DNA from: Geosiphon pyriformis uo1
Lineage: Eukaryota > Fungi > Glomeromycota
Reading direction: 5' to 3'
DNA: 64,000 bases
Assembly: GCA_016748015.1 (NCBI GenBank)
Contig: JAAOMT010000235.1
Span: 79,453 to 143,452 of the forward strand
Part shown: in pieces, positions 24,250-58,985 of the stretch
How positions within the stretch are numbered: the stretch's first letter is position 1
How the letters are laid out: every line of letters begins with the position of its first letter
The notes under the pieces: model-generated
The model's database searches: none
The model's input: only the letters and a program-made list of their open reading frames with translations
What the model was told of the DNA's origin: nothing
Program-made: the position numbers and the translations under genes

Positions 24250-27054
24250 GTGCCTGAATCCTCAAGACCACATGCACATTTAATTGAGACAGTCATAGCT
24301 CCAGGTGTAGCCTACACTAAAGTTAGAGGTTTACTAAGGAAAGAAAACATTTTGTATTTACATCAGGTTTAAAACAAGGATAGATTGTTAATAAAATGGA
24401 TGGACTTCACAAGGAAGTACAGACAAAATGACAGTGGTAGAATTCCCAAATGGTTTAAGATTTTAGAGTCTACAATCATTATAGATGAACACAGGAACAT
24501 TAATGTAACCCAATGTGAAGCAGTGGGGATACACAAAATAGATAACCAAATACCAGATAACCTAAATACAATACAAAAGAACTCTATTTACATCCAAATT
24601 CTTGATGCTCTATTACCACAATGGAGAGATGTGCAAGATAAGTTGAGGCTCAGAAAAGAAATAGAAATATCAACAGATGGATCACTGGTAAAAGCTGGTT
24701 TTGAGAATGCTAGAGGAGCAGCCACTTTTGTGACTCATGAAATAGAGGCCAACTTTGGTATAGCAGTTAATGGAACTTTATTATCAACAAAGACTGAAGC
24801 AAAAGCTGTATTATTGGCTTTAGAAGCAGTGCCTTATAAATGCAAACTGACATTGAACACAGATAGTTAGGCAGTAGTGTCAACAGCTCAAAAATGGTTG
24901 TCCAAAAATTCTCCCTTGTCTATTAGGAATCAGCTCAAAAAAAAAAAAAGATCATTGAATACTCTTTCTCTCCTAAATTTCATGACCACAAATAGAGCTA
25001 AGAGTAAAAAAGTTGCAAATGTTACTTTTCCTATAGTGACTAATAAAGTTTCAACACGAAAGGGTCTCTCTGTTATTGAAGCAGCTAGACAAAATGTTCT
25101 GGCAACATTTCCTTTAAAAAATAATAGTAATAAGCTGCCTTTAGTGGCTTCTGGTTCATTTTCTTCACCTTTGGCTGGTAGTTCTTCTTCAGTCAAAGTT
25201 CCTTCAAAAAAGCCCAAAGATTTTTAATAACAGACCAGTCAACAAGTTGGTCTTTCCTGCTCTCACCACTCCCACTATTACTTCTACTATTACTGCTTCA
25301 CAAATGGCCGTGAAAGCCAAAAATTCCAAAAAACAGTAGCAGGCAGTCACAACTGCTATGGTCATACTGAACTCCTTTGTGGTTCCAAATGAGATCTTCA
25401 GTAAGATCTTCACAGCAGCAGCCAGTCCACTTCCTGATATGGATGGCAACAGCAGTGGCCCATCTCCCAAGATGGGCCAAGATCAACCACTGGCTGTGTT
25501 GCCTGATGTGGTAATCTCTGGCAGATCATTGCCAATCCCAGTAGCAAAACAGTCTATCAATCCAGATGATCTCAAAAATTGGGCTGATCAGATGGAAATG
25601 GAATTAACTGTCTCTCCCCCAGTTTCTGGTGCTGCTGATGGTGGTGCTTAGAAAAATGTGAATGGTTGTCAGAGGTTCTCTGGTTGGGTGGCCTCCAATC
25701 TAGTACCTGGAGCTACATTCAAGATCAAAATGGCCCTGCTTGGTTTCTTGTTCCAGTTACTGCCTGGTTGTATTGGGCTTAAATCAGTTTCACAAGATGC
25801 TGTTAAGTTGTTCTGTGTGGAATTTGCATCTCAGGAGTGTTTAAATGGTGCCACCAAAATGGCCATCAGTAATGAGGTGTTTTTGACCACTCTTAAGATT
25901 GTATGGTTTTCTGATGTGGCCTCTGTTTCTTTCCCTTCCTTGTCAGTTGCACTGCACGATGTACTTTTGGGTACCTCTTCTGATGACATCAAAACTGCTT
26001 TTGGCATTTTTGGTGTTGTCACTTCTGTTAAGTTGAAGCCTGCTGGCTTATGGCAATATGCTGTGGTTAATTTTAAGGACATTTCTTCTGCTACTGCTGC
26101 TCTCTTTAACTGGTTTGTATTGGTCAGAAAAGATAGTGTTAGGATTCTTTCTGTTGCCAACCAAAAGGAGGTTATTTCCTCAAGAGATGCATTCAAAGCT
26201 AAGTTGGTCAATCTTCCATTTGGCTGTACTGCCTTTGAGATAAGTGATTTGGTCTTCCAAGTTGGTGGCCGTACATGTTTCATTCTTCACTCCCCTGAAT
26301 CTTATTGATGTCAACACTTTGCTGTGGTTACATTTGATTCTTTGGAATCTCTAAATGTTGCTGTGTCAAAAACTGGTACCTTGCATGGTTGTCGCATCTG
26401 GTGGGAAACTTCACTGCTACAGGTGTCAAGACTTGAATCATTTGGCTGTGAACTGCAAGAAGTTGCCTCCTCTCCCATCTAAACTCCCTTCCAACACCTT
26501 TGGTGGCCCCAAAAATTTCAAATCTTCATTTGTTGGATCTAAATCTTATGCCAAGACTGCTGCTTTTGTGGTTCCTCCTGGTGCTGCTGCTGCTGATATG
26601 GAGTTGGATCTTGGTGATTCTCCCAAAACTACAACACCTGTGTTGCCTGCTGTCTCTTATGTTCCCAATACTGCTGTTGAATCTAGGTTAATGAACTATC
26701 TGTGTTGATTAAATCCTTGGTTGAACCTGTTGGTGCTCTGGTTGCTATAGATGTGTCAGTTAAGGAATGTATAGATGGGTTGGCTAAGCAAAATAAAGGC
26801 TTGGCTGCTGTTGCCATCATGATGCAGAAAAGATTAACACGTCTTGAGACAATAAGTGAATGGATTTGCTTGGAGAATGGATCAGATGTTGATGACATGG
26901 TTGATGATGTTGATCATGATGATGATGAAGATAGAGATTTTTCAGTTTATGATAACACTTTTGATGTCATTGTTACAGTTGAAACCCATAATTTTATTAG
27001 TTATCACATGTATTAGTCACTAATGTCATAATTAGCCATTCTATTTTTAGATAG

Positions 27055-27138
27055 TGATCATTGACCTGATCAATAACCTGACCATTGACTTGATTATTGA
27101 CCTGATCATTGACCTAGTCATTGACCTGGTCATTGACT
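27055..27138 (+). repeat. Tandem 12-mer (TGATCATTGACC)n in the LTR, upstream of the TATA box
   Basis: About 7 degenerate units here; unit number differs among LTR copies. Confidence 0.85.
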
Positions 27139-27150
27139 ACTTTCAATAGC

Positions 27151-27210
27151 TATATAAGTGATAAGTCTCTTAGCTGTAGAAAATCATCTTTCAGACAAGA
27201 ATCAAATAAA
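27151..27210 (+). promoter_or_regulatory. Putative LTR TATA box (TATATAA 27151-27157) and poly(A) signal (AATAAA 27205-27210)
   Basis: Motifs in the expected order after the repeat array; GCTATATAAG-like box in most LTR copies. Confidence 0.5.
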
Positions 27211-27665
27211 TAAAAATAACAACTTTCATCTCAATCACTCTTTTATTACTAATTTCCCTTTCCCTACCTTTAAGTATCCGAACATCTTAGGATAAAAGAT
27301 TACTTGTTGGCCTTTTCCTGTTTGAATAATTGTAGTATTTGAAGACTATTTGTATAAACGTGACTGAAGAGCACAAGTTGATACCTGATATTGAATTCTA
27401 AGAGTGCTGACATAAAGGCATAGAATTAATATCAGCAGTGATCAATTGTTGACAGTATGGACTATTCCTCTACCTTCAGATTCCCTTGTTACCTTTTGAA
27501 AAGAATAGTGACTGAGATATTTTATGAGACTGATCTCATACATTGAATCCATACTCATTCAATTTGTTCATTGAAGTTGAATCCCCTTTGATTATTTCCA
27601 TCACTCTACAATCCTGTTCTCCCTTGCTATCCATTAGCTTGTTACTCCAACCCATAACATAAAAG

Positions 27666-27684
27666 TGGTGCTCTCTGTGAGGTT
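27666..27684 (+). promoter_or_regulatory. Primer-binding site, probably for elongator tRNA-Met
   Basis: TGGTGCTC(C/T)CTGTGAGGTT 6 nt after the LTR; also at 39833-39851 (-) and 49835-49853. Complement AACCTCACAGGGAGCACCA resembles the eukaryotic elongator tRNA-Met 3' end. Confidence 0.7.
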
Positions 27685-27711: not shown

Positions 27712-29256
27712 ATGGGTGATTACTCATATCTGCCACAGCAATCAGAAGAACACTATGCAGTACACAACAGAAACAACCTAGATTTCATTGAACTTAATTC
27801 TCTGCCCTCCTCCTTGATCTGCTTTCCCATTGAAGAACAATCCAGCAGACAATTCCAAGACTTTTGGAACTGGTTCCTGAATATGCATTCAGCTAAAACC
27901 TACACAACTTATACAATCTATTACTTTGATCAAGCTTATTTTGAAGATAACTTTAAAGAAAGAAACAACAGTATCAATCAGCTCTTATATTCTACAACCT
28001 TTGAACAACAGCCCCCTGATTTCGAATATCTGAATCATCAAATCCACATTTGGATTGTTGCCCATCAATCAACAGTAACTCCCCTTGAAACAGAAGAAGA
28101 AAGCTACCAAACAGTCCCTATTTTTGATCTCTTCTTAAGTGAATCAGAGCACTCCACACAAACAGTAACTCCTGAACCAATGGCCCAAGATCCAATGCAA
28201 GTAAACATCCTGGCTGCCCTCCAAGGCATACAAACTGCTTTGGGACAAAGAAACAACACCCCACTACTCCTATTCAGAGGTGATGCCCAAGATCTAATTG
28301 AATGGTTGGACAATTTTGAAAGAGCAGCCACTGCAAACCAGTATGATGATGAATATAAGTTCCAAATCGTTGGTGGCTACCTCCAAGGCTCCCCTGCTAC
28401 CTGGTTTTCACAAGAAACCAATGCTGGTGCTCAACAAAGAATTGTTAAATGGACCCCAGCAAATATTGGAGAAAACAACACCTCTTTCACTACCCGGTTT
28501 GAAAACAAATTTAGAACCCCCATCTTAATATCCAAATGGTGCATGGAATTAGAAAGAAGAACCCAAGGTCCTGGTGAAATTGTGACCAAATATGCCAAAG
28601 CAATTAGAAAACTCATCAAGCGTGTAGACTCTGGTAGAAACTGGACTAAAGAGCAAAAGATCCACTCCTTCACAAAAGGATTGAGAACTGATTTATCATA
28701 TGCTTTTTGGCCTCTCTTGGCTTTAAAAGATAATCCCACCATGGATATGGCCATTGAACTCGCCCAAAGAATTGAAGACAATCAAAGAATGCATTTGAGA
28801 TCCACACTTCTAGTTTTTGCTCCTGCTCCTGTTATGGCTCCTACTCCTCAAATAGCCACTACTTCTTTTGCTGCCCAGACACAAGATCCAAATGAACAAT
28901 TAATAGATAGACTTACAGCAAATCTTGCTTGGCTATTAGAACCATTAGCCCAAGCAGTCAGAGATAACTAGCAACCACAAAGACCCAGATTTGAAAACCG
29001 TTTTAATTAGCCCCAGCAACCCCCTTACCAAAGACAGCAAAATCGTGGCCCTCCTGTGTGTTATAGATGTGGATTAACTGGACATTTTTCCAGAGATTGC
29101 AACAATCCTCCACTGCCTCCTCCAGCTCCCAGAAACAATGACAACCAAAACAACAGACCCAACAACAACAACAATGTTCCCAATCATGCCAACATCAATT
29201 TCTTTGGAGAGGATCCCCTAGTTGAAGCCACTGTTTATCAGCCTTTAAACTGGTAG
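27712..29256 (+). pseudogene. gag: Gypsy gag (N-terminal extension, capsid domain, CCHC knuckle)
   Basis: LFRGDAQDLIEWLDNFERAA, YLQGSPATWF, QGPGEIVTKYA, CYRCGLTGHFSRDC; internal stops from C>T. Confidence 0.9.
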
Positions 29257-29290
29257 GCACACCTCCAAAGGGTGAGAGTGCAAGCCAACC
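29244..29290 (+). promoter_or_regulatory. -1 ribosomal frameshift signal (T TTA AAC plus downstream stem-loop)
   Basis: Heptamer is in the gag frame just before TGG TAG; the -1 frame is continuous with the protease ORF; conserved at 38336-38342 (-) and 51411-51417. Confidence 0.75.
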
Positions 29291-31913
29291 AGAAGAAAAC
29301 CTCTTTTATGCTTTTAACTTAACTGATGATGACCATGACATGGATGAACTAGTAATCAACACCTCAGAACCAACCAGAAAGAAGAAAAAAGCCAAGGTTG
29401 ATTTTGTTCTAGACCCCAACAAAGCCTCAACTTCTGCCACTGATAACAATGAGCCACCAAAGGCTAAAGTTTTTAAGAATCCTTCAAAGTTGGAACCCCC
29501 AGAAATTGTACAAAAATCTGGACCCTATTCCTTTGTTAAAGATCTCATGGAAACCCCAGCACATATTACCTTTGGCCAGTTAATGACCCACCTACAGTTC
29601 AGAAAGGATCTTCACAAATCCTTGATTCCAAAGAAAAAGACACCAAAAACCAACAAGTGTCCTCACCAAGCTGTACTTGCTGACAACAGCAATGTCACCC
29701 CTCTGATTTGTAAAGCCCAAGTGGCTGGATACTTCATTGACTTAATTCTGGACAGTGGATCATCTGTTAGTGTCATTGCCAAACACTTCTTGGAAGCAAT
29801 TGGTAGAAAGATTGATGAACCTTTCACCAGACCAATGACCAATGTACATGGTGACAAAAAGAAAGGACTGGGTATTGCCAAAGCTGTTCCTGTCTGCATC
29901 AATGGAATCAGCATTGAAACTGACATGGAAGTTTCTGAAGCCAAAGAATACACCATCATTGTTGGCAATAAATGGCTCAAGAAAGCAAAAGCTTTGCTTG
30001 ATTATGAACTTTGTGAATTAACCATCAGATGTGGTGAGAAACCCATTGTGGTTAAGTGTCACCATTGGAGAACTCCCCCAGTACCCAAACAAAACCAAAA
30101 AGAAGAACAATCAGATGAATCAGATGATGAAGAGAGCGATAAAGAAGAAGAACAAGAAGAGCAAGAAGAAACTACTGAACTCGCTTATACCACCTTCACC
30201 AGCAATGGCAAACCACTGGACAATGTTAAAGCAGACAAAGAAAGAATCATTGTAAATGGCAAGCTAATCTGCTGGCCTTATTATGATATTCTTAGAAGAA
30301 CCTTTGAAAGAAAACCTGGCAAGAAAGCCAAATACAGTTTTTGGTGACATGGTCCTTGTGCCCAGTGTTGGTGCAACAAACTCTTGTATTCTCCAAGTGA
30401 TGAATGTAAATCATGCCTGATCTATTACAGAGATTGGAAACCAATCAGTTTGATACCCAGAGAAGAATTGAAAGAAGTACAGAATTCCTTTGAGAATGAA
30501 CCACCTGAGATTCAATCACTGGTTGTAGAACAAAAAGAACCCTCCCCAGAAGAAAGAAAAATAAACATTGAAAATTTGCTGGCTAAAAATAGCCAAAAAA
30601 GGTGATACCCCTGGACATACTCATGTAATACAACACACCATCACCACCAGAGAAACTTGACCCATCTATTTGAAGCCTTATCAATCCAATCAGCACAATG
30701 ATGAGTTAATCAAGAAAGAGATAAACTGGATGAAAGAACTTGGATTCATACAAGAAACCAAGAGTGAATGGGCTTTCCCAGTTGTAGTAGTATCCAAGAA
30801 AGATGGAATACTATGCTTCTGTGTTGACTACTGCCAATTAAATGCCATCACTGAAAGAGACATGTACCCACTTTTCAAGATTGATGCAATGTTAGACCAA
30901 TTCAAAGATGCTGCTTTCTTCTCAACCATTGACTTAACTGCTGGATTCTGGCAAGTAGAGATGGATCCAGAAAGCAGAAAGAAAACTGCCTTCATCACCA
31001 AGTATGGCATCTATGAATTCACAGTCATGCCTTTTGGTCTCACCAACACCCCTCCCATCTTTCAATGCTTAATGGATAAAGTATTTGAATCAGTCAAGGA
31101 AAACTTTGTTCTAGTCTATTTGGACGACATAATAGTATACTCAAAAACCTGGGATGAACACCTGGAACATTTGCAAAAGGTTTTTGACCTGGCCTCAAGA
31201 TCAACCCAATCAAATCTTTCTTTGAAAGACAATCCACCCAATTTCTTGGTCATCTTATCACAAAAAATGGAATTTTTCCTGACCCAGCCAAAGTTGAAAA
31301 AGTCCAAAACATCAAACAACCAATGAACATTTATGAACTACACTCTTTTCTTGGTTTGGCCTCTTATTATTGCAAATTTGTCAAGAATTTCTCCAAAATC
31401 GCCTCTTCTCTCAATCAGCTACTCAGGAAAAATGTCAATTACCATTGGAAAACACATCAGCAAAAAGCCTTTGAAACTTTAAAGGAAAAACTGGTTACAG
31501 AACTTATCCTCAAGCAACCTGATCTAGATCAACTCTTTATCCTCCATACTGATGCATCTGGTTTTGGACTTGGTGCTGTTCTCTTCCAGAAAGATAAAGA
31601 TGGCAAAAAACATGCCATAGTTTATGCCAGTAGAACCCTTTCCCTAGCAGAACAGAACTATTCAGTCACTGAACAAGAATGCTTAGCAGTAGTATGGTCC
31701 ACCAGTTACTGAAGTAAGTATCTTCTTGGTGTGAAGTTTTTGGTAGTAACAGATCACCAAGCTTTGGTTTGGCTGCACAACAAAAAGAGGCTAGAACACA
31801 AACAGATAACTCACTGGATACTCCACTTGGATGAATTTGACTATGATATTCAACATCACAAAGAAGCTAATCATCAAAATGCTGATGCTCTTTCCAGACT
31901 TACCATCCAGTGA
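29250..31913 (+). pseudogene. pol: Gypsy pol: protease, RT, RNase H (ends at a stop after NADALSRLTIQ)
   Basis: LILDSGSS, FCVDY, IDLTAGFWQV, KTAF, MPFGL, VYLDD, TDASG, EQECLAVV, VTDHQAL, NADALSR. Confidence 0.92.
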
Positions 31914-31980
31914 CAGAACAAACCTCTCAAACCAAACCAACTTAATTATTAATAATTCCCACTTTTTGACAAACACGATA

Positions 31981-34900
31981 ATGAACTTGGACAACTACTC
32001 TGCCTTAATAGAATTTTTGGGTAAAGAACAATACCCACCGAAATACACATGACAACAAAGAGAACATTTGCGCAAACAATCAAATTTCTATTTAATTCAC
32101 TAGAACCAACTTTATAAAAAAAATAGAAAAGATCCTAACCACCCCCAGAGAGTCATCAGATTTGAAGAAAGAGAAATTGTGATCTACAATATGCACACTA
32201 ATCTATTAGCTGGACACTTTGGGAAAACAAAAACAATTCAGAAAACTCTAACTCACTATTATTGGCCTACCTTGGGAAAAGACATTGCTGAATACATCAA
32301 AACCTGTAATATCTGCCAAAGAAGAAGAAAACCCAATCACAAAGAAGATATCCATCCAATCTCTGTTGGTCAACCCTTTAACAGAATTGGTATAGATGTT
32401 GTTGGATCTTTAACAATAACTCCTGATGGCAACAGATACATTATCACAGCTACTGACTATTTTACAAAGTGGGTAGAAGCAAGAGCCACCCCAGACCAAA
32501 CAGCAGTTTCAATAGCCAATTTCATTTATAAAGATATCATTTGTTGCCATGGCTGCCCCAAAGAACTTTTATCTGACAGAGGAAGAGCTTTTCTTAGTAC
32601 ACTTGTTAAAGAACTTTGCAGAAAAATGGGAATACATCACAAACTTTCCTCTCCTTATTACCCCTAAACAAATGGCCTAGTGGAACATTTCAATAGAACA
32701 CTACGTGAAACCCTAGCCAAAACCAGCAAAGAAACAAACTTATGGGACAAAGTACTGCCTTCAGCCTTGTTTGCTTATAGAACTGTGAATTATGACATAA
32801 TAAGTTATGAACCCTTTTATCTATTCTATGGATGAATGGCAATCCTACCAATAGAAACTGACATTGAAACAATACCCTTTGAACAAATAACAATAAGAAA
32901 TTACAAAGACACTTTGCAAAGAAGACTTGGTACTATTCTTGACTCATTAGTAGAAGCACAGATAATTGTCTTTGAAAAGATAAAACAATTCCAAGAGAAG
33001 CTTAAAAAAAAGAAAACATATTGTTATGGGTTGGAGTAACAAGCTAACAGATAGCAAGGAAGAACAGGATTGTAGGGTGATGGAATTAATCAAAAGGGGA
33101 ATTCAACTTTAAAGAGTGAATTGAATGAGTATGGATTCAATGTGTGAGATCAGTCTTATAAAATATCTCAGTTGCTATTCTTTTCAAAGGTAACTGGGGA
33201 ATTTGAAGGTAGAGGGATAGTCCGTACTGTCAACAATTGATCACCACTGGTATAATTCTATGCTTCATGTCGGCACTCTTAGAATTCAATATCAGGTATC
33301 AACTTGTGCTTTTCAGTCACATTTATTCAAATAATCTTCAAATGCTACAATTATATACATCAGGAAAAGGCCAACAAGTAATCTTTTATTCAAAAGATGT
33401 TTAGATACTTGAAGGTAGAGAAAGGGAAATTAGCAATAAGAAAATGTTTGAAATGAAAGTTTGTTATTTTATTTCTTTGATTGTCTTGATTCCTTACATT
33501 GATCATGTCTTTCTACAGCTAAGGAAATCATCACTTATATAGTTATCTAAAGTGGTCAACGATCACTATCTAAAAATAGGGTGGCTAATTATATAACATC
33601 AGTGGCTAATACATGTGATAACTAATAAAAACTATGGGTTTCAACCATAACATCATCCTCTCCAAAGAGATTAAGCTCCGGTGAAATCAAGCTATTTATG
33701 AGATAGTCTATGTGAAGGGTTTTGTCTAACTCAAAACTAACTAATTTGTTGAAGTCTTTTGTGGATAAGGTATATAATACTTGAGATGAAATAAGTTTTG
33801 TATCCAAGAGACCAAATCTTTGTATAAGAGTTCTGGCTCTTCTAGCAATAGTCAAAACTCTTGGAACATCTAATCGTATAATGCCCAAATTTCCACTTGT
33901 ATTTCTGAAGTTGTTTTCTTCATGAGCTTCATGTCTTCTATGATTTCACCAAGACAACCATAGAGTTTTAGTTGTCTTCCATATGACAAGTTTTTGTCTA
34001 TGGGCAAGATTTCTTGTATCATTTTTCCAATTGTGCTAGAAGGTGAAAGTATTGCTGCTGTTATGCTTTTTAGCAGGTATTTATCCATTTTGCCACCAAT
34101 TCTTTCCCTTCTGGTAGTTGTTTTCTTTGGTCTGATAACAGTGTGAGTTCCACTGTTGTCTGTTATAGTGGTTTGTTTTCTGATAGTCAGAGTAGCATTT
34201 GGATAGTTCTTGATCCAATACTCATGGAGAGTATAGAAAGCATTTTGAATGTTTTGATCCAGGAAGATACCTCTGTTTTGGGAATGGTGCATTTATTTAT
34301 ATCTGATTTTTACTGATCATTTGGGTTGGTATTACCACAACAGGTAACCAATCAGATTGTTTGTGATATTTCTTGAGTCACGTGCCATGAACAGGGCAAT
34401 CACTGAATATTGTTCCATATTGATCTTGTAGAATATATGAACCATTGTTCAAAACTTTGTTGACTAAAAAAGGTCCTTTCCAGCAGCTGGAGAATTTATC
34501 ACCATAGACATTGTCTCTGTCTGAATGGTATTCCAAAACTAAGTCACCAATACTTAAGGAAAGTGTTTTATAGGTCTTTTTCTTTTTGAGCTTCTCTTGG
34601 AACTGTTTTATCTTTTCAAAGGCAATTATCCGTGCTTCTACCAATGAGTCAAGAATGGTACCAAGTCTTCTTTGCAAAATGTTTTTGTAATCTCCTATTG
34701 TTATTTCTTCAAAAAGTATTGTTTCTATTGGTAGAGTTGCCATTCATCCATAGAGCAGATAAAAGGGTTCATAACTTGTTATGTCATGATTTACAGTTCT
34801 GTAGACAAACAAAGCTGAAGGCAATACTTTGTCCCAGAGGTTGGTTTTTTTACTGGTTTTGGCTAAAGTTTCACATAATGTTCTATTGAATGTTCCACTA

Positions 34901-37900
34901 GGCCATTTGTTTGAGGGTGGTAAGGGGAGGAAAGTTTATGACGTATTTCCATTTTCCTACAAAGTTCTTCAACCAGTATACTAAAAAAAGCTCTTCCTCT
35001 ATCAGATAAAGGTTTTTTGGGGCAGCCGTGACAACAGATAATATCATCATAAATAAAATTGGCAATTGAGACTGCTGTTTGATCTGGGGTGGCTCTTGCT
35101 TCTACCCACTTTGTAAAATAGTCGGTAGCTGTGATAATGTATCTGTTGCCATCAGGAGTTACTGTTAAAGGTCCAACAACATCTATACCAATTCTGTCAA
35201 ATGGTTGACCAACAGAGATCAGATGGATATCTTCCTTGTGATTGGGTTTTCCTCTTCTTTGGCAGGTATCACAGGTTTTGATGTATTCAGCAATGTCTTT
35301 TCCCAAGGTAGGCCAATAATAGTGAGCTAAAGTTTTCTGAATTGTTTTTGTTTTTCCAAAGTGTCCAGCTAATGGATTAGTGTGCATATTGTAGATCACA
35401 ATTTCTCTTTCTTCAAATCTGATAACTCTTTAGGGGCGGTCAGGATCTTTTTTATTTCTTTTATATAACTGGTTCTGGCAAATCAAATAGAAATTTGATT
35501 GTTTGCACAAATGTTCTCTTTGCTGTCGATTATAGTCCAGCGGGTATTGTCCTTTACTCAAAAATTCCATTAAGGCAGAGTAGTTGTCCAAGTCCATTAT
35601 CATGTTTGTTTGTGGGGGAGTTACAAATAATTAAGTTGGTTTGGTTTGAGAGGGTTTTACTATTACTAGATGGTAAGTCTGGAGAGAGCGTCGGCGTTTT
35701 GATAATTAGCTCCTTTGTGGTGTTGAATGTCATAGTTGAATTCATCCAAGTGGAGTATCCAGTGAGTTATCCATTTATGTTCCAGGTTTCTTTTGTTGTG
35801 TAGCCAAACCAAAGCTTGGTGATCTGTTACCACCAAAAATTTTACACCCTTAAGATATTTGTCCCAGTAGCTGGTAGCCCAAACTACTGCTAAGCATTCT
35901 TGCTCAGTGACTGAGTAGTTCCTTTCTGCTGGTGTGAGAATTCTACTGGCATATGCTACGGCATGTTCCCTGCCATCTTCGTCTTTCTGGAAAAAAACAG
36001 CACCAAGTCCATAGCCAGATGCATCAGTATGGAGGATAAAAGGTTGATCCAGATTAGGTTGCATGAAGATGGGTTCTGTAACCAGTTTTTCTTTCAGAAT
36101 TTCAAATGCTTTTTGTTGATGAGTGCCCCAGTGATAATTGATGTTTTTCCTAAGTAGCTGATTAAGAGGAGCAGCAATTTTGGAGAAATCTTTGACAAAC
36201 TTGCAATAATAAGAGGCCAAACCAAGAAAAGAGCGTAGTTTATAAACATTCATTGGTTGTCTAATGTTTTGAACTTTTTCAATTTTGGCTGGATCAGGGA
36301 AGATTCCATCTTTTGTAATAAGATGGCCAAAGAACTGGATGAATTGACATCCAAAGAATGATTTGATTAGATTGATCTTGAGACCAGCATTTCTAAGGAG
36401 GTCAAAAACCTTTTGCAAATGTTTAAGGTGTTCATCCCAGGTTTTTGAGTATACCATTATGTCGTTCAAGTAGACTAGAACAAAGTTTTCTTTTACTGAT
36501 TCAAATACTTTGTCCATTAAGCATTGAAAGGTGGGAGGAGCATTTGTGAGACCAAAAGGCATGACTGTGAATTTGTAGATGCCATACTTGGTGATGAAGG
36601 CAGTTTTCTTTCTGCTTTCTGGATCCATCTCTACTTGCCAGAATCCAGCAGTTAAGTCAATGGTTGAGAAGAAAGCGGCACCATAGAATTGGTCTAGTAT
36701 TGCATCAATCTTGGGAAGTGGGTACATGTCTCTTTCAGTAATGGCATTTAATTGGTGATAGTCAACACAAAAGCGTAGGGTTCCTCCTTTCTTGGATATC
36801 ACTACAACCGGGAATGCCCATTCACTCTTGGTTTCCTGTATGAATCCAAGGTTTTTCATTTGGGTTATTTCCTTTTTGATAAATTCATCATTGCACTGGT
36901 TGGATTGATAGGGCTTCAAATGGATGGGGCAAGTTTCTCTGGTAATGATGGTGTGTTGTATCACATGTGTACATCCAGGAGTTTCATCTTCTTTTGAGAT
37001 AACTGGGTTGTTTCTAGCCAGCAGGTTTTCAATGTCTATCTTTCTTTCTTCTGGAGAGAGTTCTCTTTGTTCTACAACCAGTGATTGGATTTCAGATGGT
37101 TCGTTTTCAAAGGACTTTTGGACTTCTTTTATTTCCTCTTGGGGTATCAAGCTGATTGGTTCCCAATCTTTGTAATAGATCAGACAGGACATGCATTTAT
37201 TGTTAGAAGAATACAATGGTTTGTCGCACCAGCACCAGGCACAAGGACCATGCCACCAATAACTGTATTTGGCTTTCTTGCCTGGCTTTCTGTTAAAAGT
37301 TCTTCTGAGCATGTCATAATAAGGCCAGCAGATCAGCTTGCCATTGACAATAATTCCTTCTTTATCTGCCTTGACATTATCCAGTGGTTTGCCATTACTG
37401 GTAAAGATGGTATAGGCGAGTTTAGCAGTTTCTTTTTGTTCTTCTTGTTTTTCTTCTTCCTCACTTTCTTCATTATCTGATTTGTCTAATTCATTTTCTT
37501 CTGGGCTCTGCTTGGGTACTGGGGGAGTTGTCCAATGGCAATATTTAACCACAATGGGTTTCTCATCACATCTGATGGTTAGTTCACAAAGTTCATAATC
37601 AAGCTTTCTTGAGCCATTCATTGTCAACAATGATGATGTATTCTTTCACTTCAGATACTTCCATATCAGTTTCAATGCTGATGCCATTGATGCGGACAGG
37701 AATAGCTTTGGCTATGCCAAGCCCTTTCTTCTTATCACTATGCACATTGGTCATTGGTCGTGTGGATGGTTCATCAATTTTTCTGCCAATTGCTTCAAGA
37801 AAGTGTTTAACAATAACACTAACAGATGATCCACTGTCTAGGATCAAATTGATGAAGTAGCCAGCCACTTGGGCTTTGCAAATTAGAGGAGTGACATTGC

Positions 37901-40789
37901 TATTGTCAGCAAGTTCAGCTTGGCAAGAGCGTTTGTTGGTTTTGGGTGTCTTTTTCTTTGGAATCAGAGATTTGTGAAGATCTTTTCTGAATTGTGGATG
38001 GGTCATCAATTGGCCAAAGGTTATATGTGCTGGGGTTTCCATGAGGTCTTTGACAACAGAATAGGGGCCGGATTTTTGTACTATTTCTGGGGGTTCCAAC
38101 TTTGGAGGGTTTTTGAAAACTTTAGCTTTTGGTGGTTCATTGTTGTCAGCAGTTGATGTAGAAGCTTTATTGGGGTCCAGAATGAAATCAACTTTGGCTT
38201 TCTTCTTTCTTGTGGATTCAGAGGGGTTGATTGCTAATTCATCCATGTCATGGTCATCATCAGTTAAGTTAAAAGCGTAAAAGGGGTTTTCTTCTGGTTG
38301 GCTTGCACTCTCATCCTTTGGAGGTGTGCCTACCAGTTTAAAGGCTGATAAACAGTGGCTTCAACTAGGGGATCCTCTCCAAAGAAATTGATGTTGGTAT
38401 GATTGGGCATCATTGTTTCTGGGAACTGGTGGAGGCAGTAGAGGATTGTTGCAATTTCTTGAAAAGTGTCCAGTTAATACACAGCGATAGCATACAGGTG
38501 GGCCACAATTTTGTTGTCTTTGATAAGATGGTTGCTGGGACTGATTGAAGCATGGTTCAAATCTGGGTCTTTGTGGTTGTTGATTTTCTCTCTAATAACC
38601 AGGCAAGATTTGCTGTAAGTCTGTCTATTAACTGTTCATTTGAATCTTGAGTGTGAGTGGCAAAAGAAGTAGCAGCCATTTGAGGGGCAGGAGCAGGAGC
38701 AAAAACTGGTAGTGTGGATCCCAAGTGCATCCTTTGGTTATCTTCAATTCTTTGTGCTAATTCAATGACCATATCCATGGTGGGGTTATCTTTCAGGGCC
38801 AGGAGGAGCCAGAGCATACAATAGATCAGTTTTCAATCCTTTTGTGAAGGAGTGAATTTTCTGCTCTTCTGTCCAATTTCTCCCAGAGTCTACACGTTTG
38901 ATTAGCTTTCTAATAGCTTTGGCATATTCAGTCACTACTTCTCCAGGGCCTTGGGTTCTTCTTTCCAATTTCATGTACCATTTGGATATTAATATTGGGG
39001 TTCTGAACTTGGCCTCAAATTGGGTAGTGAAAGAGGTATTTTCTTCTCCAGCATTAATTGGTGTCCATCTGATTATTCTGTGTTGAGCATTGGCATCTGT
39101 TTCTTGTGAGAACCAGGTAGCAGAAGAGCCTTGGAGGTAGCCACCAACAATTTGGAACTTGTATTCTTCATTATACTGGTTGGCTGTGGCAGCTCTCTCA
39201 AAATCATCCAACCATTCAATTGGATCTTGTGCATCACCTCTAAATAGTGGTAGTGGGGTATTGTTTCTTCTTTCTAGAGCAGTTTGTATACCTTGGAGGG
39301 TGGCCAGAATGTTTGCTTGCATGGGGTCATTAGCCATTGGTTCAGGGGTAACTGTTTGTGTATACGAGTCTGATTCACTTGATAAAAGATCAAAAACAGG
39401 GGCAGTTTGGTAGCTTTCTTCTTCTGTTTCAAAGAGAGTTTCAGTTACTTGATGGGCAGCAATCCAGATGTGGATTTGATGATTCAGATATTCGAAATCA
39501 GGAGGCTGTTGTTCAAAGGTTGCAGAATATAAGAGCTGATTGATACTGTTGTTTCTTTCTTCAAAGTCGTTTTCAAAATAAGCTTGGTCAAAGTAATAGG
39601 TTGTATAAGCTGTGTAGGTTTTAGCTGAATACTCGTTCATGAACCAGTTCCAAAAGTCTTGGAATTGTCTACTGGATTGTTCTTCAAGGGGGAAGCAGAT
39701 CAAGCAGGAGGGCAGAAGATTAAGTTCAATAAAATCTAGGTCATTTCTGTTGTGTGCTACAAAGTGTTCTTCTGATTGCTGTGGCAGATATGAGTAATCA
39801 CCCATACAATGAGGGAATAAGTGAATTTTGACAACCTCACAGGGAGCACCACTTTTATGTTATGGATTGGAGTAACAAGCTAACAGATAGCAAGAGAGAA
39901 CAGAATTGTAGGGTGATGGAATTAATCAAAAGGGGAATTCAACTTTAAAGAGCAAATTGAATGAGTATGGATTCAATGTGTGAGATCAGTCTCATAAAAT
40001 ATTTCAGTTGCTATTCTTTTCAAAGGTAACTGAGGAATCTGAAGGTAGAGGGATAGTCTGTACTGTCAACAATTGATCACCACTGGTATAATTCTATGCC
40101 TCACATCGGTGCTCTTAAAATTTAATATCAGGTATCAACTTGTGCTTTTCAGTCACGTTTATTCAAATAATCTTCAAATGCTACAATTATATATGTCAGG
40201 AAAAGGCCAACAAGTAATTTTTTATCCAAAAGATGTTCAGATACTTGAAAGTAGGGAAAGGGAAATTAGCGATAAGAGAATGTCTGAGATGGAAGTTTGT
40301 TATTTTATTTCTTTGATTGTCTTGATTCCTTACATTGATCATGTCTTTCAACAGCTAAGGGAATCATCGCTTATATAGTTATCTAAAGTGGTCAATGACC
40401 AGGTCAATGATCAGGTCAATGATCACTATCTAAAAATAGGGTGGCTAATTATATGACATCAGTGTCTAATACATGTAATAACTAATAAAAACTATGGGTT
40501 TCAACCATAACAATATAAAACACTTTCCTTAAGTGTTGGTGACTTAGTTTTAGAATACCGTTCAGACAGAGACAATGTCTATGGTGATAAATTCTCTAGC
40601 TGGTGAAAAAGACTCTTTATAGTCAACAAAGTTTTGAACAATGGTTCTTATATCTTACAAGATCAATATGGAACAATCTTCAATGATCACTCTGTTCATG
40701 GCACACAACTCAAGAAATATTACAAACGACCTGATTGGTTATCTGTTGTAGTAATACTGACCCAAATGATCAACAAAAATCAGATATAA
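31981..40789 (+). pseudogene. Gypsy integrase as a separate ORF (31981-33021 plus 40517-40789)
   Basis: HTN..AGHFG / CNIC zinc finger, GIDVVG, DYFTKW, SDRG, TNGLVEHFN, VHGTQLKKY; no chromodomain. Confidence 0.88.
33022..40512 (-). mobile_element. Ty3/Gypsy family A copy 2, complete (5' LTR 39858-40512, 3' LTR 33022-33652)
   Basis: TSD ATAT 33018-33021 / 40513-40516; gag from 39805; pol ORFs 37599-38246 and 35666-37630; IN 35603-34297; ORF-X 34292-33622. Confidence 0.95.
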
Positions 40790-40830
40790 ATAAATGCACC
40801 ATTCCCAAAACAGAGGTATTTTCAATCGAC

Positions 40831-41487
40831 ATGAACAATTATTTCCTAGATCAAAACATTTAAAATGCTTTCTACACTCTCCATGAGTACTGGATCAAAA
40901 ATTATCCAAATGCTACTCTGACCATTGGAAAACAAACCACCATAACTGATAACAGTGGAACACATACTGTTATTAGACCAAAGAAAACCACTACCAGAAG
41001 AGAAAGAATTGGTAGCAAAATGGATAAGTATTTGCTAAAAAGCATAACAGCAGCAATACTTATATCTTCCATGACAATTGGAAAAACGATTAAGGAAATC
41101 TTGCCCATAGACAAAAACTTGTCATATGAAAGGCAAGTAAAACTCTATGGTCATCTTGGTGAAATCATAGAAGAAATGAAGTTCATAAAGAAAACAACTT
41201 CAGAGATACAAGTGGAAATTTTGGGCATTATACGTTTAGATGTCCCAAAAGTTTTGACCATTGCAAGAAGAGCCAAAACTCTTATACAAAGATTTGGTCT
41301 CTTGGATACAAAGCTTATTTCGCCTCAAGTACTATACACTCTATCCACAAAAGACTTCAACAAACTAGTTAGTTTTGAGTTAAACAAAACACTTCAATTA
41401 GAATACCTTATAAATAGCTTGATTTTGCTGGAGCTCAATCTCTTTGGAGAGGATGATGTTATGGTTGAAATCCATAATTTTTATTAG
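40831..41487 (+). pseudogene. Gypsy accessory ORF-X (about 218 aa, function unknown), overlapping the PPT and 3' LTR
   Basis: ATG 40831 (MNNYFLDQNI...), one internal TAA, ends ELNLFGEDDVMVEIHNFY* inside the LTR; homologues at 33622-34292, 58351-58985 and 59623-60280. Confidence 0.75.
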
Positions 41488-43027
41488 TTATCACATGTAT
41501 TAGTCACTGATGTCATATAATTAGCCACTCTATTTTTAGATAGTGATTATTGACCTGATCAATGACCTGACTGTTGACCTGATTATTGACCTGATCATTG
41601 ACCTGATCAATGATCTGATCATTGACCTAGTCGTTGACCTGGTCGTTGACCACTTTCAATAGCTATATAAGCAATGAGTCTCTTAGCTGTAGAAAATCAT
41701 CTTTCAAATAAATAAAAATAACAACTTTCATCTCAATTACTCTCTTATTACTAATTTTTCTTTCTCTACCTTCAAGTATCTGAACATCTTAGGATAAAAG
41801 ATTACTTGTTGGCCTTTTTCTGTTTGAATAATTGTAGTATTTGAAGACTATTTGTATAAACGTGACTGAAGAACACAAGTTGATACCTGATATTGAATTC
41901 TAAAAGCGCTGATATGAAGGCATAGAATTAATACCAGTGGTGATCAATTGTTGACAGTATGGACTATCCCTCTACCTTTAGATTCCCTTGTTACCTTTTG
42001 AAAAGAATAGCAACTAAGATATTTTATGAGACTGATCTCGCACATTGAATCCATACTCATTCAATTTGCTCATTGAAGTTGAATCCCCTTTGATTATTTC
42101 CATCACCCTACAATCCTGTTCTCCCTTGCTATCTGTTAGCTTGTTACTCCAACTCGTAACATCATGATGCACCTATGAGAAGATCAGTTTCCAAGAATCA
42201 AATCCAGTCCTGATCAGACTGCTAAGTGGATGAGTAATATGGTTAAGAATAGTCATAAGCTTGTTAGCATTATGAGTAAGATGTACAAATTAGAAATGTT
42301 TGATACATTGAGTAGCAAAAGTAGTACTAGTATGTAGTTAGAGCTTTCCACTAAGTGGTTAGCTGCATTTTGTAAACTTTGTATTATTGGATGAACTGAC
42401 TTTATGAAAGCACCAACTTTATTGTTTGACAAAACTAATAAACAATCATTGTGGCTACACGTTAACATAAAAAAAAAAAAAAACAGCTCAAAACTCCTAA
42501 TTGACACACATAAAATGCAATTAAAGCAGTGATAGGAGAAAAAAGAATTGATCTTAACATAAACAAAGTGGCTGCACATACTGGTATATCTTAAAAATGA
42601 GATGGCTAACAAACTAGCCAAAGAAGCTACTACTTTTGACACAGTGGTGTGGACTTACAATGCTAAGAACATCAGTTATATCCCTTCTTGCAGAGGAGTT
42701 GAATTAGATCTGAATATCAGACATTTTCTGAGCCAACAGACTGGAATTCAAGGAGCCTTGGATTGGATTAGCAATAACAAAGTACAAAAGACAGTAGGGT
42801 CTTTGGACCAGAGAGTAGACTGGAAAAGCACAACCAAAGTGTAGAACTAGGATGGTAAAATGTCATCAGGCTTCATCTCAGCTGGTTTTTCAGTAATGCA
42901 TACATTTATTATGAAATCATTCCACAATATGTTGCCAATGGCAGAGGTGCTATACAACAGATGTTTTTTAGTGTATATGAACAATCTGTGCAAAGTGTGT
43001 TACACAGAAGTTGAAACCAACCAAAAC

Positions 43028-45903: not shown

Positions 45904-46056
45904 ATACTAGTGTGTAGTTAGGCATAACCACTTTGTGGTTAGCCACATCTTGTAACTTAGATTATTGGGTGAGTTGGCTTTATGAAAAAGCCGTGCTTTT
46001 TGAGTATGGCTAAACTAATAAAAGACCAGTGTGACTACACATTAACAAAAAAAAAA
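45904..46056 (+). promoter_or_regulatory. LINE 3' tail shared with the ORF1-only elements
   Basis: TACTAG.GTGTAGTTAGG...GTGGTTAGCC...TATTGGGTGAG.TGGCTTTATGAAA...CTAATAAA...CTACAC.TTAAC(A)n matches 9151-9300, 12110-12245, 42325-42483, 55472-55620. Confidence 0.85.
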
Positions 46057-49137: not shown

Positions 49138-51750
49138 TGTTATGGTTGAAACTTATACTTCTTATTAATTATTACATATATTAGCCACTGATGTCATATA
49201 ATTAACCACTCTATTTTTAGAAAGTGATTATTGATCTGATCAATAACTTGACCATTGACCTGATCATTGACCTGATTATTGACCTGATTATTGACCTGAT
49301 CATTGACCTAATCATTGACCACTTTTGATAGCTATATAAGCAATAAATCTCTTAGTTGTAGAAATACATGTAATAAAATAACAACTTTCATCTCAATCAT
49401 TCTCTTATCACTAATTTCTCTTTCCCTACCTTCAAGTATCTGAACATCTTGGGATAAAAATTACTTGTTGGCATTTACCTACCCTTTTCCTGACTTGTAT
49501 AATTGTAGTATTTGAAGATTATTAAATAAAACATGACTGAAGAGTACATCTAATACCTGATATTAAATTCTAAGAGCACCAATGTGAGGCATAGAATTAT
49601 ACCAAGTGTGATTATTTGTTGACAGTATGGACTATTCTTCTACCTTCAGATTTCCTGGTTATTTTTGAAAAGTATAGCAACTGAGATATTTTATGAGACT
49701 GATCTCACACATTGAATTCATACTTATTCAATTTGTTCTTTGAAGTTGAAATCCTTTTGATTTTTTTCATCACTCTACTATCTTGTTCTCTCTTGCTATC
49801 TGTTAGCTTGTTATTCCAACTTGTAACATAAAAGTGGTGCTCCCTGTAAGATTGTCAAAATCCACTTTGTTTTTTATTGTATGGGTAATTATTTATACCT
49901 GCCACAACAATCAGAAGAACACTTTGAAGCACACAACAAAAATGATCTAAACTTTATTGAACTCAATTTTTTGCCCTCCTGCTTGATTTGCTTCCCCATT
50001 GAAAAACAATCTAGTAGACAATTCCAAGACTTTTGGAACTGGTTTCTGAACAAGCATTCAGCTGAAATCTACATAGCCTATACAACTTATTACTTTAACC
50101 AAGCTTATTTTGAAGACAACTTTAAAGAAAAAAATAACAGCATCAATCAGCTTTTATATTTCACAACCTTTGAACAACAGCCCCCTGATTCTGAATACCT
50201 GAATCATCAAATTTACATTTGGATTGCTGCCTATTAACTAGCTAAAACACCCTTTGAAACAGAAGAAGAAAGCTATTAAACTGCTCTTGTTTTTGACCCC
50301 TTTTCAAGTGAATCAGAACATTCCACACAAACAGTTACTCCTGAACCAATGGCTTAAGACCCTATGCAACAAAACATTTTGGTCACTCTTTAAGGCATAC
50401 AAACTGCTTTAGAACAAAGAAACAATACTCCATTACCATTATTCAGAGGTAATGTCCAAGATCCTATTAAATGGTTGGATGATTTTGAAAGAGCTGCTAC
50501 AGCCAACCAATATAATAATGAATACAAGTTCCAAATTGTTGGTGGCTATCTTCAGGGCTCTTCTGCTACTTGGTTCTTACAAAAAACCAATGCCAATGCT
50601 TAGCAAAAAATCATTAGATAAACACTGGCAAATGCTGAAGAAGATTATACATATTTTACTATCCAGTTTGAAATAAAATTTAAAACTCCTATCTTAATAT
50701 TCAAATGGTGTATGGAATAAAAAAGAAAAACTCAAGGCCTTGGTGAAGTTGTGATTGAATATGCCAAAGCTATTAGAAAACTAATCAAATGAGTAGACTT
50801 TGAAAGAAAAACAGAAAATTCACTCCTTTACAAAAAAATTGAAAACTGATCTCTCATATGCTCTTTGGCTTCTTTTGGCCCTGAAAAATAATCCCACAAT
50901 GGACATGGCCATTGAACTTGCCCAATGAATTAAGGATAACTAAAGGATGGATTTAGAATTCACACTACCAGTTTTTGCTCCTGCTCCTGTTATGGCCCTT
51001 GCTTCTCAAATGGCTGCTACTTCTTTCACTGTTCAGACTCCAGATCCCAATGAACAATTGATAGATAGGCTTATAGCTAATTTTGCCTAGTTATTAGAAC
51101 TCTTAGCCCAAGCAGTCAGAGATAATCAGCAACTACAAAGACACTGATTTGAACCCCATTTTAATCAGCCCCAGCAACTTTCTTATCAAAGACAGCAAAA
51201 TCATAGCCCACCTGTGTGCTATTATTGTGAATTAACTGGACACTTTTCTAGAGATTGCAACAATCCTCTATTGCCTTCTCTAGTTTCTAGAAACAATGAC
51301 AATTAAACTAACAGAACCATTAACAACAATGCCCCCAATTAAAGACCCAATCATGCCAACATTAATTTCTTTGGAGAGGATTTCTTAGTTGAAGCCACTG
51401 TTTATTAGCTTTTAAACTGGTAGGTGCATCTTCAAAGGGTAAGAGTACAAGCCAACCAGAAAAAAACCCCTTTTATGCTTTTAATCTAACTAATGATGTC
51501 CATAATATAGATGAATTAGCAATCAACACCTCTGAATCAACAAGAAAAAAGAAAAAAGCCAAGGTTGATTTTGTTCTGGACCCAAACAAAGCATTCAAAT
51601 CAACTGCTGATAACAATAAGCCACCAAAGGCTAAAGTTTTTAAAAATCTTCCAAAGTTGGAACTCCCAGAAATAGTACAAAAATCTGGCACCTATTTTGT
51701 TGTTAAAAATCTCATGGAAATCCCAGCACACATTATATTTGGCCAACTAA
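49138..51750 (+). mobile_element. Gypsy family A copy 3, 5' part: LTR 49138-49828, PBS, heavily decayed gag and start of pol
   Basis: Inserted after ATAT in an ORF1-only fragment (48945-49137); gag from 49881; TTTAAAC at 51411. Confidence 0.85.
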
Positions 51751-51777
51751 CAGTTTAGAAAAACAGTTCTATAAAAC

Positions 51778-52916
51778 TAAAAAACTCTTTCTCTCTTAAT
51801 TTTCATGACCATAACTAAAGCTAAGAATAAAAAAGTTCCAAACAGTACTTTTCTTATAGTAACTAATAAAGTTTTAACATGAGAGGGCCTTTCTGTTATT
51901 GAAGCAGCTAGACAAAACATTCTGGCTACATTTCCATTAAAAAATATTAGTGAAAAGCTGCTTTTAGCAGCTTCTGGTTTATTTTCTTCTCTAGTTAAAG
52001 TTTCTTCAAAAAACACACTTGGGTTAGTTCCAGTGTAGTCTCTACTATTTCTAAAAACCCAAAGATTTTTAATAACAGACCAGTCAACAAATTGGTTTTT
52101 CCTGCTCTTACAATTTCCACTACTGCTACCACTACTTCTGCTTCCTAAATGGCCATAAAAGCCAAAAATTCCAAAAAACAGCAGCAGGCAGTTGCAACTA
52201 CTATGGTCATACCAAACTTCTTTGTGGTTCCAGATGAGATCTTGGATAAGATTTTCACAGCAGCAGCCAGTCCTCTTTCTGATATAGATGGCAATAGCTC
52301 CTAATATGAAGCAAGATCAACCACTGGCTGTGTTGTCTGATATGGTAATCTCTGACAGATCATTTTCTGTCATAGAAGCAAAACAGTTCATCATTTTAGA
52401 TGATCTTAAAGATTGAGCTGATCAGATGGAAATAGAATCATCTGTTTCTCCCCCAGTTTCTGATGTTGCTGATGATGGTGCTTGGATAAATATAAATGGT
52501 CAACAAAGATTCTCTGAGTGGGTGGCCTCCACTCTTGTGTCTGGTGTCACATTCAAGATAAAGATGGCTCTTCTCAGTTCTTTGTTTTAGCTGCTGCCTG
52601 GTTGTATTGGGCTTAAGTCAGTTTCACAAGATGCTGTTAAGTTGTTTTGTGTGGAATTTGCATCTCAGAAGTGCCTAACTGGTGCCACCAAAAGGACCAT
52701 TAGTGATGAGATTTTTTTGACCACTCTTAAGATTGCATGGTCTTCTGGTATAGTCTCTGTTTTTTTTTCCTCTCTGTCAATTATACTGCACAATGTACTC
52801 TTGGATATCTCTTTTGATGACATCAAAACTGCTCTTGGTATTTTTGGTGTTGTCACTTCTGTTAAGTTGAAGCCTGCTGGCTTATAGCAATATGCTGTAG
52901 TTTATTTTAAAGATAT
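51778..52916 (+). mobile_element. ORF1-only element 5' fragment, interrupted by a Gypsy LTR (52917-53092, then gap)
   Basis: Family 5' end and ATG; LTR TGTTATGG after ATAT. Confidence 0.8.
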
Positions 52917-53217
52917 TGTTATGGTTGAAACTTATACTTCTTATTAATTATTACATATATTAGCCACTGATGTCATATAATTAACCACTCTATTTTTAGA
53001 AAGTGATTATTGATCTGATCAATAACTTGACCATTGACCTGATCATTGACCTGATTATTGACCTGATTATTGACCTGATCATTGACCTAATCNNNNNNNN
53101 NNNNNNNNNNNNTAGTACAAAAATCTGGCACCTATTTTGTTGTTAAAAATCTCATGGAAATCCCAGCACACATTATATTTGGCCAACTAACAGTTTAGAA
53201 AAACAGTTCTATAAAAC

Positions 53218-58600: not shown

Positions 58601-58985
58601 AAACTACTACCAGAAGAGAAAGAATTGGTAGTAAAATGGATAAATATCTGTTAGAAAGTATAATAGCAGCTATACTCACACCTTCCAACACAATTGGAAA
58701 AACACTTCAAAAAATCTTACCTATAGACAAAAACTTGTCATATAGAAGACAATTAGAACTCTATGGTCACCTTGGTGAAATTATAGAGAATATAAAACTC
58801 ATGAAAAAAACAACTTCAGAGATACAAGCAAAAATTTTGGGCATTATACAGTTAGATGTCTCAAGAGTTTTAACTATTGCTAAAAGAGCCCAAAACTCTA
58901 ATACAAAGATTTAGTCTCTTGAATACAAAACTTATTTTGCCTTAAGTATTATATATCTTATCCATAAAAAACTTCAACAAACTAG
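55632..58985 (+). mobile_element. pol: Gypsy family A internal region: RT-RH, separate IN (ATG 57086), ORF-X; truncated by copy 4
   Basis: VYLDD, TDHQAL, stop TGA 57025-57027, GIDVVG, VHGTRLKKY, ORF 58351..58914. Confidence 0.9.

Follow-up and report, generated by a model that had tools for sequence, protein, structure and literature searches.

Where does the integrase (IN) of a long terminal repeat (LTR) retrotransposon come from when the polymerase frame ends before the integrase begins? Ty3/Gypsy elements (Metaviridae) normally carry IN at the end of the pol polyprotein (PMC3248453). The question is raised by a 64,000-nucleotide (nt) stretch of the genome of the fungus Geosiphon pyriformis uo1 (assembly GCA_016748015.1, contig JAAOMT010000235.1, positions 79,453 to 143,452), here called the window, which holds four Gypsy copies (c1 to c4). 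An earlier note on this DNA had claimed that their IN is a separate cistron and not part of Pol. Here, we present an analysis of the four junctions together with those of related elements. The four copies are decayed members of a Ty3/Gypsy family with the integrase encoded as its own gene, and the split-IN layout is real, lineage-wide and apparently undescribed in the open literature. IN is very probably initiated separately from Pol.

In all four copies a stop codon follows ribonuclease H (RNase H), and after a spacer of 61, 59, 58 and 61 nt past the aligned second codon (c1 to c4, respectively) every copy has the IN start AAAC-A(T/C)G-ATA-AT(G/A), as the earlier note had described. The IN frame differs from that of RNase H, by +1 in c1, c3 and c4 and by +2 in c2, and in c2 and c3 an in-frame TAA lies in the spacer 33 nt upstream of IN. 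The features at the junctions are as follows.

29244..31913, forward strand: protease, reverse transcriptase and RNase H (PR-RT-RH) frame of c1, broken, ending in NADALSRLTIQ-TGA (stop at 31911-31913); domains scored on c2
31914..31974, forward strand: RNase H-IN spacer of c1, 61 nt, G-poor and CA-rich, with an acceptor-like site at 31950-31952
31975..33021, forward strand: 5' part of c1 integrase, starting ACG-ATA-ATG with the ATG at 31981; broken by the insertion of c2
40513..40790, forward strand: 3' part of c1 integrase, its stop overlapped by a TATA-like box, GATATAAATAA, at 40783
35668-35666, reverse strand: RNase H stop of c2, TAG, then TAA TAG TAA; IN ATG at 35603
57025-57027, forward strand: RNase H stop of c3, TGA, then TAG; IN ATG at 57086
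61707-61705, reverse strand: RNase H stop of c4, TAG, then TAA; IN ATG at 61640

The window also holds evidence for a joined Pol, in which a short intron, a frameshift or readthrough would still link RNase H to IN, with IN released from a polyprotein. The IN frame of c1 and c4 has no stop for 165-171 nt upstream and so spans the RNase H end, which means that these two copies by themselves would allow a +1 shift. The statement that no conserved AG acceptor is visible was too strong, as c3 and c4 read CTTAATTATTAG followed by TAA, and c1 and c2 differ from this by one base. The site at 31950-31952 is TAA in c1 and TAG in c3 and c4, and G at 31952, the family majority, accounts for 132,720 of 145,488 of the summed contig depth (91%; 4368 contigs of run X1 on the junction). 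A 43-nt GT..AG intron ending at this acceptor would fuse the RNase H and IN frames in c4, but c1 has no AG, and a 2-nt deletion common to c2 and c3 shifts the intron out of frame there. The 40 listed of 164 junction-variant rows include no T-to-C change at 31911, such as would imply a CGA ancestor of the stop. Folding of the spacer is weak (-0.1 kcal/mol in c2 and -0.4 kcal/mol in c4). Taken by itself the window is thus suggestive, and it would also permit decay as the origin of the stops, because all four copies are decayed; the relatives settle the question.

Relatives were collected at the protein and the nucleotide level. A protein search with the c4 IN as query (stops given as X) returned 677 proteins at E <= 1e-20, 120 of which were listed; the query was built from stand-alone INs, which may bias the sample. 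In 92 of the 120 listed IN homologues a Met stands at profile position 1-3, while 24 start inside IN and 4 have an N-terminal extension. Over the first 60 residues, all 120 are free of an RNase H motif; conversely, 120 RT-RH homologues, with lengths of up to 786 amino acids (aa) searched, gave no IN match. The nucleotide sample consists of the best 80 of 566 soil-metagenome loci, 49 of them with an RT/RH match upstream of IN; a single distant fused locus from viral contigs (L081) was excluded from all counts. Pol stops before IN in 49/49 of these loci, which form 42 clusters at 80% IN identity, and an ATG stands at the conserved IN start in 48/49, the exception (L048) having none in frame. The IN frame relative to Pol is 0, +1 or +2 in 13, 19 and 17 loci, and the gaps range from -20 to +1600 nt. 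Of the other 31 loci, 5 have contigs that do not contain the IN start; in all of the remaining 26 the ATG is preceded at 6-60 nt by an in-frame stop. Where at least 400 codons are open before the Pol stop (29 loci), IN is open over at least 380 aa in 27. These intact loci bear out the claim that IN is an ATG-started open reading frame (ORF) of its own, outside Pol, and extend it to the whole lineage. Young intact copies with an open RNase H-IN frame were looked for among the relatives and none were found.

A joined Pol finds little room in these loci, in agreement with the view that readthrough, a fixed frameshift and an intron all fit poorly. A single frameshift would be possible in 12 of the 49 loci and a single readthrough in 3, but the other 34 allow neither. 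Only 11 of 48 loci could accommodate a GT-AG intron by which RNase H, with its end retained, would be fused to IN; 9 of these 11 have tails of at least 20 aa, and in the other 37 loci no such intron is available. Three gene models from NCBI do link upstream domains to IN: among 113 matches of a longer-protein search, only P0124-P0126 reach at least 42% over most of IN, and a further one, P0208, matches 27% of IN (all four are eukaryote gene models). However, neither P0124 nor P0125 includes the DxLSR end of RNase H or the N-terminus of IN, and P0126 is without most of RT and RNase H; P0125, moreover, is almost the same as the stand-alone protein P0042. The longer-protein search held no close genuine RNase H-IN fusion, which by the tool's own note is weak evidence.

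Recoding sites are recognisable elsewhere in the lineage. The heptamer TTTAAAC occurs at the gag/pol overlap in c1 to c3 and in two metagenomic loci (L012 and L016), and from these sites gag and pol are likely joined by a -1 frameshift into a Gag-Pol fusion. An in-frame TGA-CTA lies ahead of RT in L041 (3290-3295), L045, L051 and L075, in the last of these before PR. TGA-CTA is a readthrough-type context, and sister elements use TTTAAAC or a single gag-pol ORF; in L078 an in-frame TGA followed by CCA was seen upstream of RT. At the RNase H-IN junction, by contrast, no site comparable to TTTAAAC or TGA-CTA was found. As the mechanism of the lineage, a joined Pol is on these sequence grounds largely refuted, and we consider it highly improbable. 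The gag/pol overlap also bears on the proposed four-cistron element, gag / PR-RT-RH / IN / ORF-X: the four ORFs stand, the fourth being ORF-X downstream of IN, whereas four translation units probably do not, since gag and PR-RT-RH overlap at TTTAAAC in c1, c2 and c3, which leaves about three.

Phylogenies of both enzymes point in the same direction. In the IN tree, split and fused Pols lie on opposite sides of a branch with a Shimodaira-Hasegawa-like approximate likelihood ratio (SH-aLRT) support of 82 (84 vs 42 rows), and in the RT-RH tree on opposite sides of a branch with a support of 97 (31 vs 40 rows). The trees are quick and midpoint-rooted, with no clade test and with short or very broken rows excluded, and the fused Pols in them are mostly unnamed, with no named reference elements. 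Both phylogenies, whose comparison the earlier note had proposed, separate split from fused elements. The distance from DxLSR to the IN start has a median of 87.5 nt (n=52) and the linker of fused relatives a median of 38 codons (70 rows, one of them spurious). Because these medians are close, the spacer is likely a decayed remnant of an ancestral RNase H-IN linker.

With the relatives at hand, the reading that the stops and frame offsets reflect decay of dead copies, or that the IN ORFs are Ginger-like DNA transposons beside broken retroelements, can also be judged. Every one of the four window copies carries premature stops, the window is CpG-depleted (observed/expected 0.099), and a YP motif at the IN start resembles the YPYY described for Ginger1 and some Gypsy INs (PMC2836005). 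Yet both frames are open in the 27 loci above, and 33 INs show no variation at the HHCC and DDE columns bar one His to Tyr. LTRs and target-site duplications (TSDs) bracket gag, pol, IN and ORF-X as one unit, and the RT-RH and IN trees part split from fused elements alike. This reading is refuted by the intact relatives and retains a negligible probability. Ginger1 shares with our elements a stand-alone Gypsy-like IN of ~400 aa, TGT ends and a 4-bp TSD, but it is described as having terminal inverted repeats and extra C-terminal protease domains, whereas here there are direct LTRs, gag and RT (PMC2836005).

Because Pol stops before IN in 4/4 window copies and 49/49 loci, the lineage is a derived Ty3/Gypsy variant and not a canonical member. 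It shares with canonical elements the TG..CA LTRs, a 4-bp TSD, gag, the order PR-RT-RH-IN and a likely -1 gag-pol frameshift, and it has a primer-binding-site-like (PBS-like) sequence and a candidate polypurine tract. The differences are a Pol that terminates behind RNase H, an IN started from an ATG of its own, an additional fourth ORF and an additional HHCC domain at the Gag N-terminus. Unlike in chromoviruses, no chromodomain match was found at the IN C-terminus (none on P0001; PF00385 on 0 of the 120 listed homologues). We found no account of an IN outside pol in an LTR retrotransposon in the open literature; Repbase, GyDB, supplements and subscription journals were not covered and a prior annotation may exist. 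The passages on a 'separate ORF' in the sources retrieved concern gag/pol, env or aRH instead (10.1101/2021.03.30.436303, PMC11952901, PMC7264820, PMC10508981, PMC3248453, PMC2836005, PMC2582038, PMC5911963, PMC6431247, PMC13465315). LTR elements described with an enzyme domain outside pol (PMC10508981) or with an extra ORF having its own promoter (PMC7264820) are similar in those traits, but there the extra domains stand beside a complete Pol and gene23 is antisense, while here the essential IN has moved out and ORF-X is in sense orientation.

How, then, could IN be started? The earlier note had left reinitiation, internal ribosome entry (IRES-driven) and a subgenomic RNA unranked, and the sequence evidence modestly favours the first. 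We give an even chance to the reading that IN is translated by reinitiation after the Pol stop on the full-length RNA. Gag-Pol would arise from the -1 frameshift; past the Pol stop a share of the 40S subunits would scan the ATG-poor spacer to an AUG in strong context, or, where the frames overlap, ribosomes would step back a few bases to the IN AUG. ORF-X would be expressed from its own TATA-driven RNA, and IN would be packaged as a free protein.

The IN starts look like true initiation codons: A stands at -3 in 40 of 57 IN starts, compared with 100 of 341 internal ATGs, and G at +4 in 51 of 57. The spacers, which are G-poor (339/2562 nt), are consistent with scanning, as 26 of 31 have no ATG, with 13 ATGs seen in all against 36 (shuffles) or 24 (Markov) expected. 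Direct contact between stop and start is also found, as the IN ATG lies -20 to +2 nt from the stop in 9 of 49 junctions, two of which read TAATG. In L078 (6969-8635) two more ORFs stand between RT-RH and IN, one for a NUDIX-deoxynucleoside kinase (NUDIX-dNK, 427 aa) and one of 127 aa, each overlapping the end of the preceding ORF, in one case as TAATG. A NUDIX ORF was also observed downstream of IN in another locus (L053:1945-2886).

Several points weigh against reinitiation. The G at +4 is partly forced by a conserved Asp/Glu, and in the spacers GTA is depleted like ATG (10 vs 37). UGGGA, resembling a termination upstream ribosome-binding site (TURBS), is not enriched upstream of the stop (3/49 vs 1.9 expected). 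Spacers of 192-365 nt exist, and that of 365 nt (L037) holds 7 ATGs. The IN yield would be low because only frameshifted ribosomes reach the Pol stop, and reinitiation following a long ORF is described as requiring a special device (PMC5972666). Finally, similar leader features would be expected of a capped subgenomic RNA, which ATG depletion and strong context fit equally well, and for this reason reinitiation is placed no higher than an even chance.

The main rival to reinitiation is such a subgenomic mRNA, made either from a TATA-less internal promoter or, in the manner of foamy virus Pol, by splicing of the 5' leader onto an acceptor before the IN ATG; we regard it as possible, if rather doubtful. 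The spacers resemble short 5' leaders in being poor in G and ATG with a strong start context, and ORF-X seems to have an internal promoter in this lineage. In the window family a CTTAAT...TTAG lies at most 22 nt before the IN ATG, TTGAY(T)nA within 25 nt of the ATG is common to 12 of the IN starts examined (with no chance control), and foamy viruses offer a precedent (PMC3705302). Neither YAG in the spacers (18/31 vs 22.5 expected) nor TATA upstream of IN (13/52 vs 10.9 expected) is enriched, however, and the stop-start overlaps and the chained ORFs of L078 would not be needed under this model.

Internal ribosome entry, without upstream translation, would be mediated by a 38-nt structure in one clade and by A/C-rich unstructured spacers in the others. 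The structure, GGUGAAAGCGAAAGUG-stem-CANNGUGA-stem-CAGCC (for example at L019:4464-4500), occurs in 24 of 82 sources and 19 IN clusters, on the sense strand only and nowhere besides directly before the IN ATG, ending 0-13 nt upstream where measured (19 loci, 14 of them at 3-4 nt). In an alignment of 21 rows, 97.2% of cells are paired, with double changes at 8 of the 12 pairs; none of 500 shuffles reach this, slid controls give 27-52%, and RNAalifold recovers the same stems. The structure was drawn from the same sequences, and 21 of the 24 hits were used to train the model. In 6 of the 7 motif loci with an RT/RH match the structure accompanies a 230-345 aa tail after RNase H. On the other hand neither the window family nor 57 other loci have it, it is apparently lost within its own clade in L057, L063 and L027, and 38 nt would be a very small size for an IRES. 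Judging by where it lies, the structure may act in initiation, or it may instead load IN onto RNA. Internal entry is accordingly an improbable route.

Rfam gave no match to the structured RNA at E up to 1 across 8 loci, 6 of them with the motif, and an exact search for the pattern found nothing among viral contigs or prokaryote genomes. Selenocysteine insertion sequence (SECIS), hammerhead and K-turn readings were dropped since the covarying stem misfits. The extended tails of Pol, seen at L019:3494-4438 and in L030, L033, L044, L057 and L068, comprise an acidic stretch and a conserved Cys/His-rich domain, and the four tails scanned had no Pfam match.

The proposed expression of IN and ORF-X has parallels in other systems. 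In foamy viruses (Spumaretrovirinae) an internal promoter drives the 3' accessory genes, and in cauliflower mosaic virus (CaMV) the last ORF has its own RNA (19S RNA), both of which resemble what we propose for ORF-X; caulimoviruses are not known to have IN or LTRs. CaMV is described as having tightly spaced or overlapping ORFs on one RNA and a reinitiation, shown to be driven by its transactivator (TAV), that tolerates gaps of a few to 700 nt (PMC5972666). ORF-X has no detected likeness to TAV, and a transactivator role for it is a hypothesis only. In the non-LTR elements LINE-1, where reinitiation across a 63-nt spacer has been proposed, and SART1 the second ORF is reached after a stop (PMC5972666), and the hypovirus CHV1 has an overlapped stop-start, UAAUG (PMC2699510). 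These are non-LTR elements or an RNA virus, and their upstream ORF is an abundant structural one, while here it is a frameshift-limited pol. Foamy viruses also make an enzyme apart from Gag, to be packaged by RNA and Gag contacts (PMC3705302), but there the separate, spliced unit is the whole Pol including IN, of which the precursor alone is packaged, whereas here RT-RH likely stays on Gag, only IN is free and there is no env.

The remaining features of the window copies are given below.

26971..27659, forward strand: c1 5' LTR, TGTT...AACA, with the TSD TCAT at 26967-26970
27666..27682, forward strand: putative c1 PBS-like sequence TGGTGCTC... (begins TGG), 6 nt past the LTR
27712..29256, forward strand: c1 gag, with a premature stop; Pfam Retrotrans_gag, and an N-terminal HHCC domain kept across the lineage
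29244..29250, forward strand: TTTAAAC slippery heptamer in the gag/pol overlap, the putative -1 frameshift site; the same at 51411 (forward) and 38342 (reverse)
33022..40512, reverse strand: c2, full-length, nested within c1 IN; TSD ATAT, LTRs at 33022-33652 and about 39859-40512
40831..41487, forward strand: c1 ORF-X, with one premature stop, homologous to the fourth ORF of the lineage
41457..42161, forward strand: c1 3' LTR, with the purine tract GGAGAGGATGA before and the TSD TCAT after
49138..58986, forward strand: c3, fragmented; 5' LTR and gag at 49138-51746, RT-RH, IN and partial ORF-X at 55630-58986
58987..64000, reverse strand: c4, adjoining c3 inside c3 ORF-X and exiting the window; 3' LTR at about 58987-59654

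The gap of 6 nt between LTR and PBS-like sequence (27660-27682) is longer than usual, and the 64-kb window has no tRNA genes. The Pfam order is Retrotrans_gag, RVP_2, RVT_1, RT_RNaseH, Integrase_H2C2 and rve, the last two also being matched by c4 IN. LTR pairs are 93.4% identical in c1 (TSD TCAT) and 94.0% in c2 (TSD ATAT), their differences comprising 81 transitions and 2 transversions. The surroundings are AT-rich, nested transposon DNA: a solo LTR of the same family lies inside other repeats at 14535-15180 (TSD ATAG), and many decayed LINE-like copies, judged by eye from endonuclease, RT and RNase H-like frames, are nested with the Gypsy copies (1717-5500, 15300-19200, 20127-24870, 43300-47900). 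Among named IN matches, Geosiphon pyriformis gene models rank best (68-70% over parts of IN), with further named relatives in Rhizophagus irregularis, R. clarus, Entrophospora and Cetraspora. Large LTR expansions have been described in Archaeosporales genomes (PMC11952901). Some RT-RH relatives (P0437, P0441, P0386) carry dUTPase (PF00692) or PF03539 annotations.

ORF-X forms one homologous family, with 33 sequences in a single network, which the window ORF-X joins by a weak link (L031, E 6e-7); homologues fall into 602 clusters at E <= 0.001. Many loci lack it or did not yield it, and other ORFs replace it in L012 and L053. The post-IN ORF of L012 (6546-6941), unlinked to the ORF-X family, has a C-terminal helix-turn-helix match (HTH_24, E 8.5e-6). 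In the window, c1 ORF-X crosses the polypurine tract and terminates within the 3' LTR. A TATA-like box lies 34-126 nt upstream of ORF-X in 21 of 25 cases (5.3 expected), sometimes within IN codons and in the window overlapping the IN stop, and ORF-X is thus probably transcribed from its own TATA promoter. It has no consistent Pfam family and no PDB sequence match under E 0.07, and the Atlas returned nothing for it (P0003). Its predicted model (predicted local distance difference test, pLDDT, 96) has no Foldseek match at E 0.001, with a best Z of 5.2. The Atlas placed ORF4 of L006 in a RegA-family cluster with high confidence, which we did not accept as only 132/256 features are shared.

The N-terminal Gag domain (125 aa; window 27712-28100, L006:3046-3426) has invariant H, H, C and C in 16 sequences and an FxxFWxW motif. 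Its predicted model (pLDDT 93) has no fold match (best Z 4.7), and no integrase zinc domain is among the matches listed; the idea that it mimics the N-terminal domain of IN is unsupported by the fold comparison.

Gag fusion is the accepted route of LTR retrotransposon enzymes into particles, and a free IN must therefore bind RT, Gag, ORF-X or RNA to enter them. Independent packaging of IN, which the earlier note had also proposed, would thus follow logically; foamy virus Pol shows that a packaging dependent on RNA and Gag can occur (PMC3705302). A more far-reaching picture, which we offer tentatively and hold to be unlikely as a whole, is a fungal LTR lineage with a pararetrovirus-like plan. 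One polycistronic RNA would carry IN and cargo (NUDIX-dNK), read by reinitiation that is switched on by ORF-X, a small helical protein with an unmatched fold and its own TATA promoter, and the 38-nt structure would place the ribosome or load the free integrase on its own RNA for packaging.

The split layout accounts for the stand-alone 'integrase core domain' genes and the false fusions in the annotations of these fungi, and it offers a path from Gypsy IN to Ginger-like transposases. The analysis also yielded, as by-products, an apparently uncatalogued structured RNA and two protein domains for which no fold match was found (ORF-X and the Gag HHCC domain). A free integrase in a diverse lineage with intact members would imply another packaging route and another way to translate a long downstream ORF in fungi. 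A separately packaged integrase would be something for which the usual model of LTR elements has no place.

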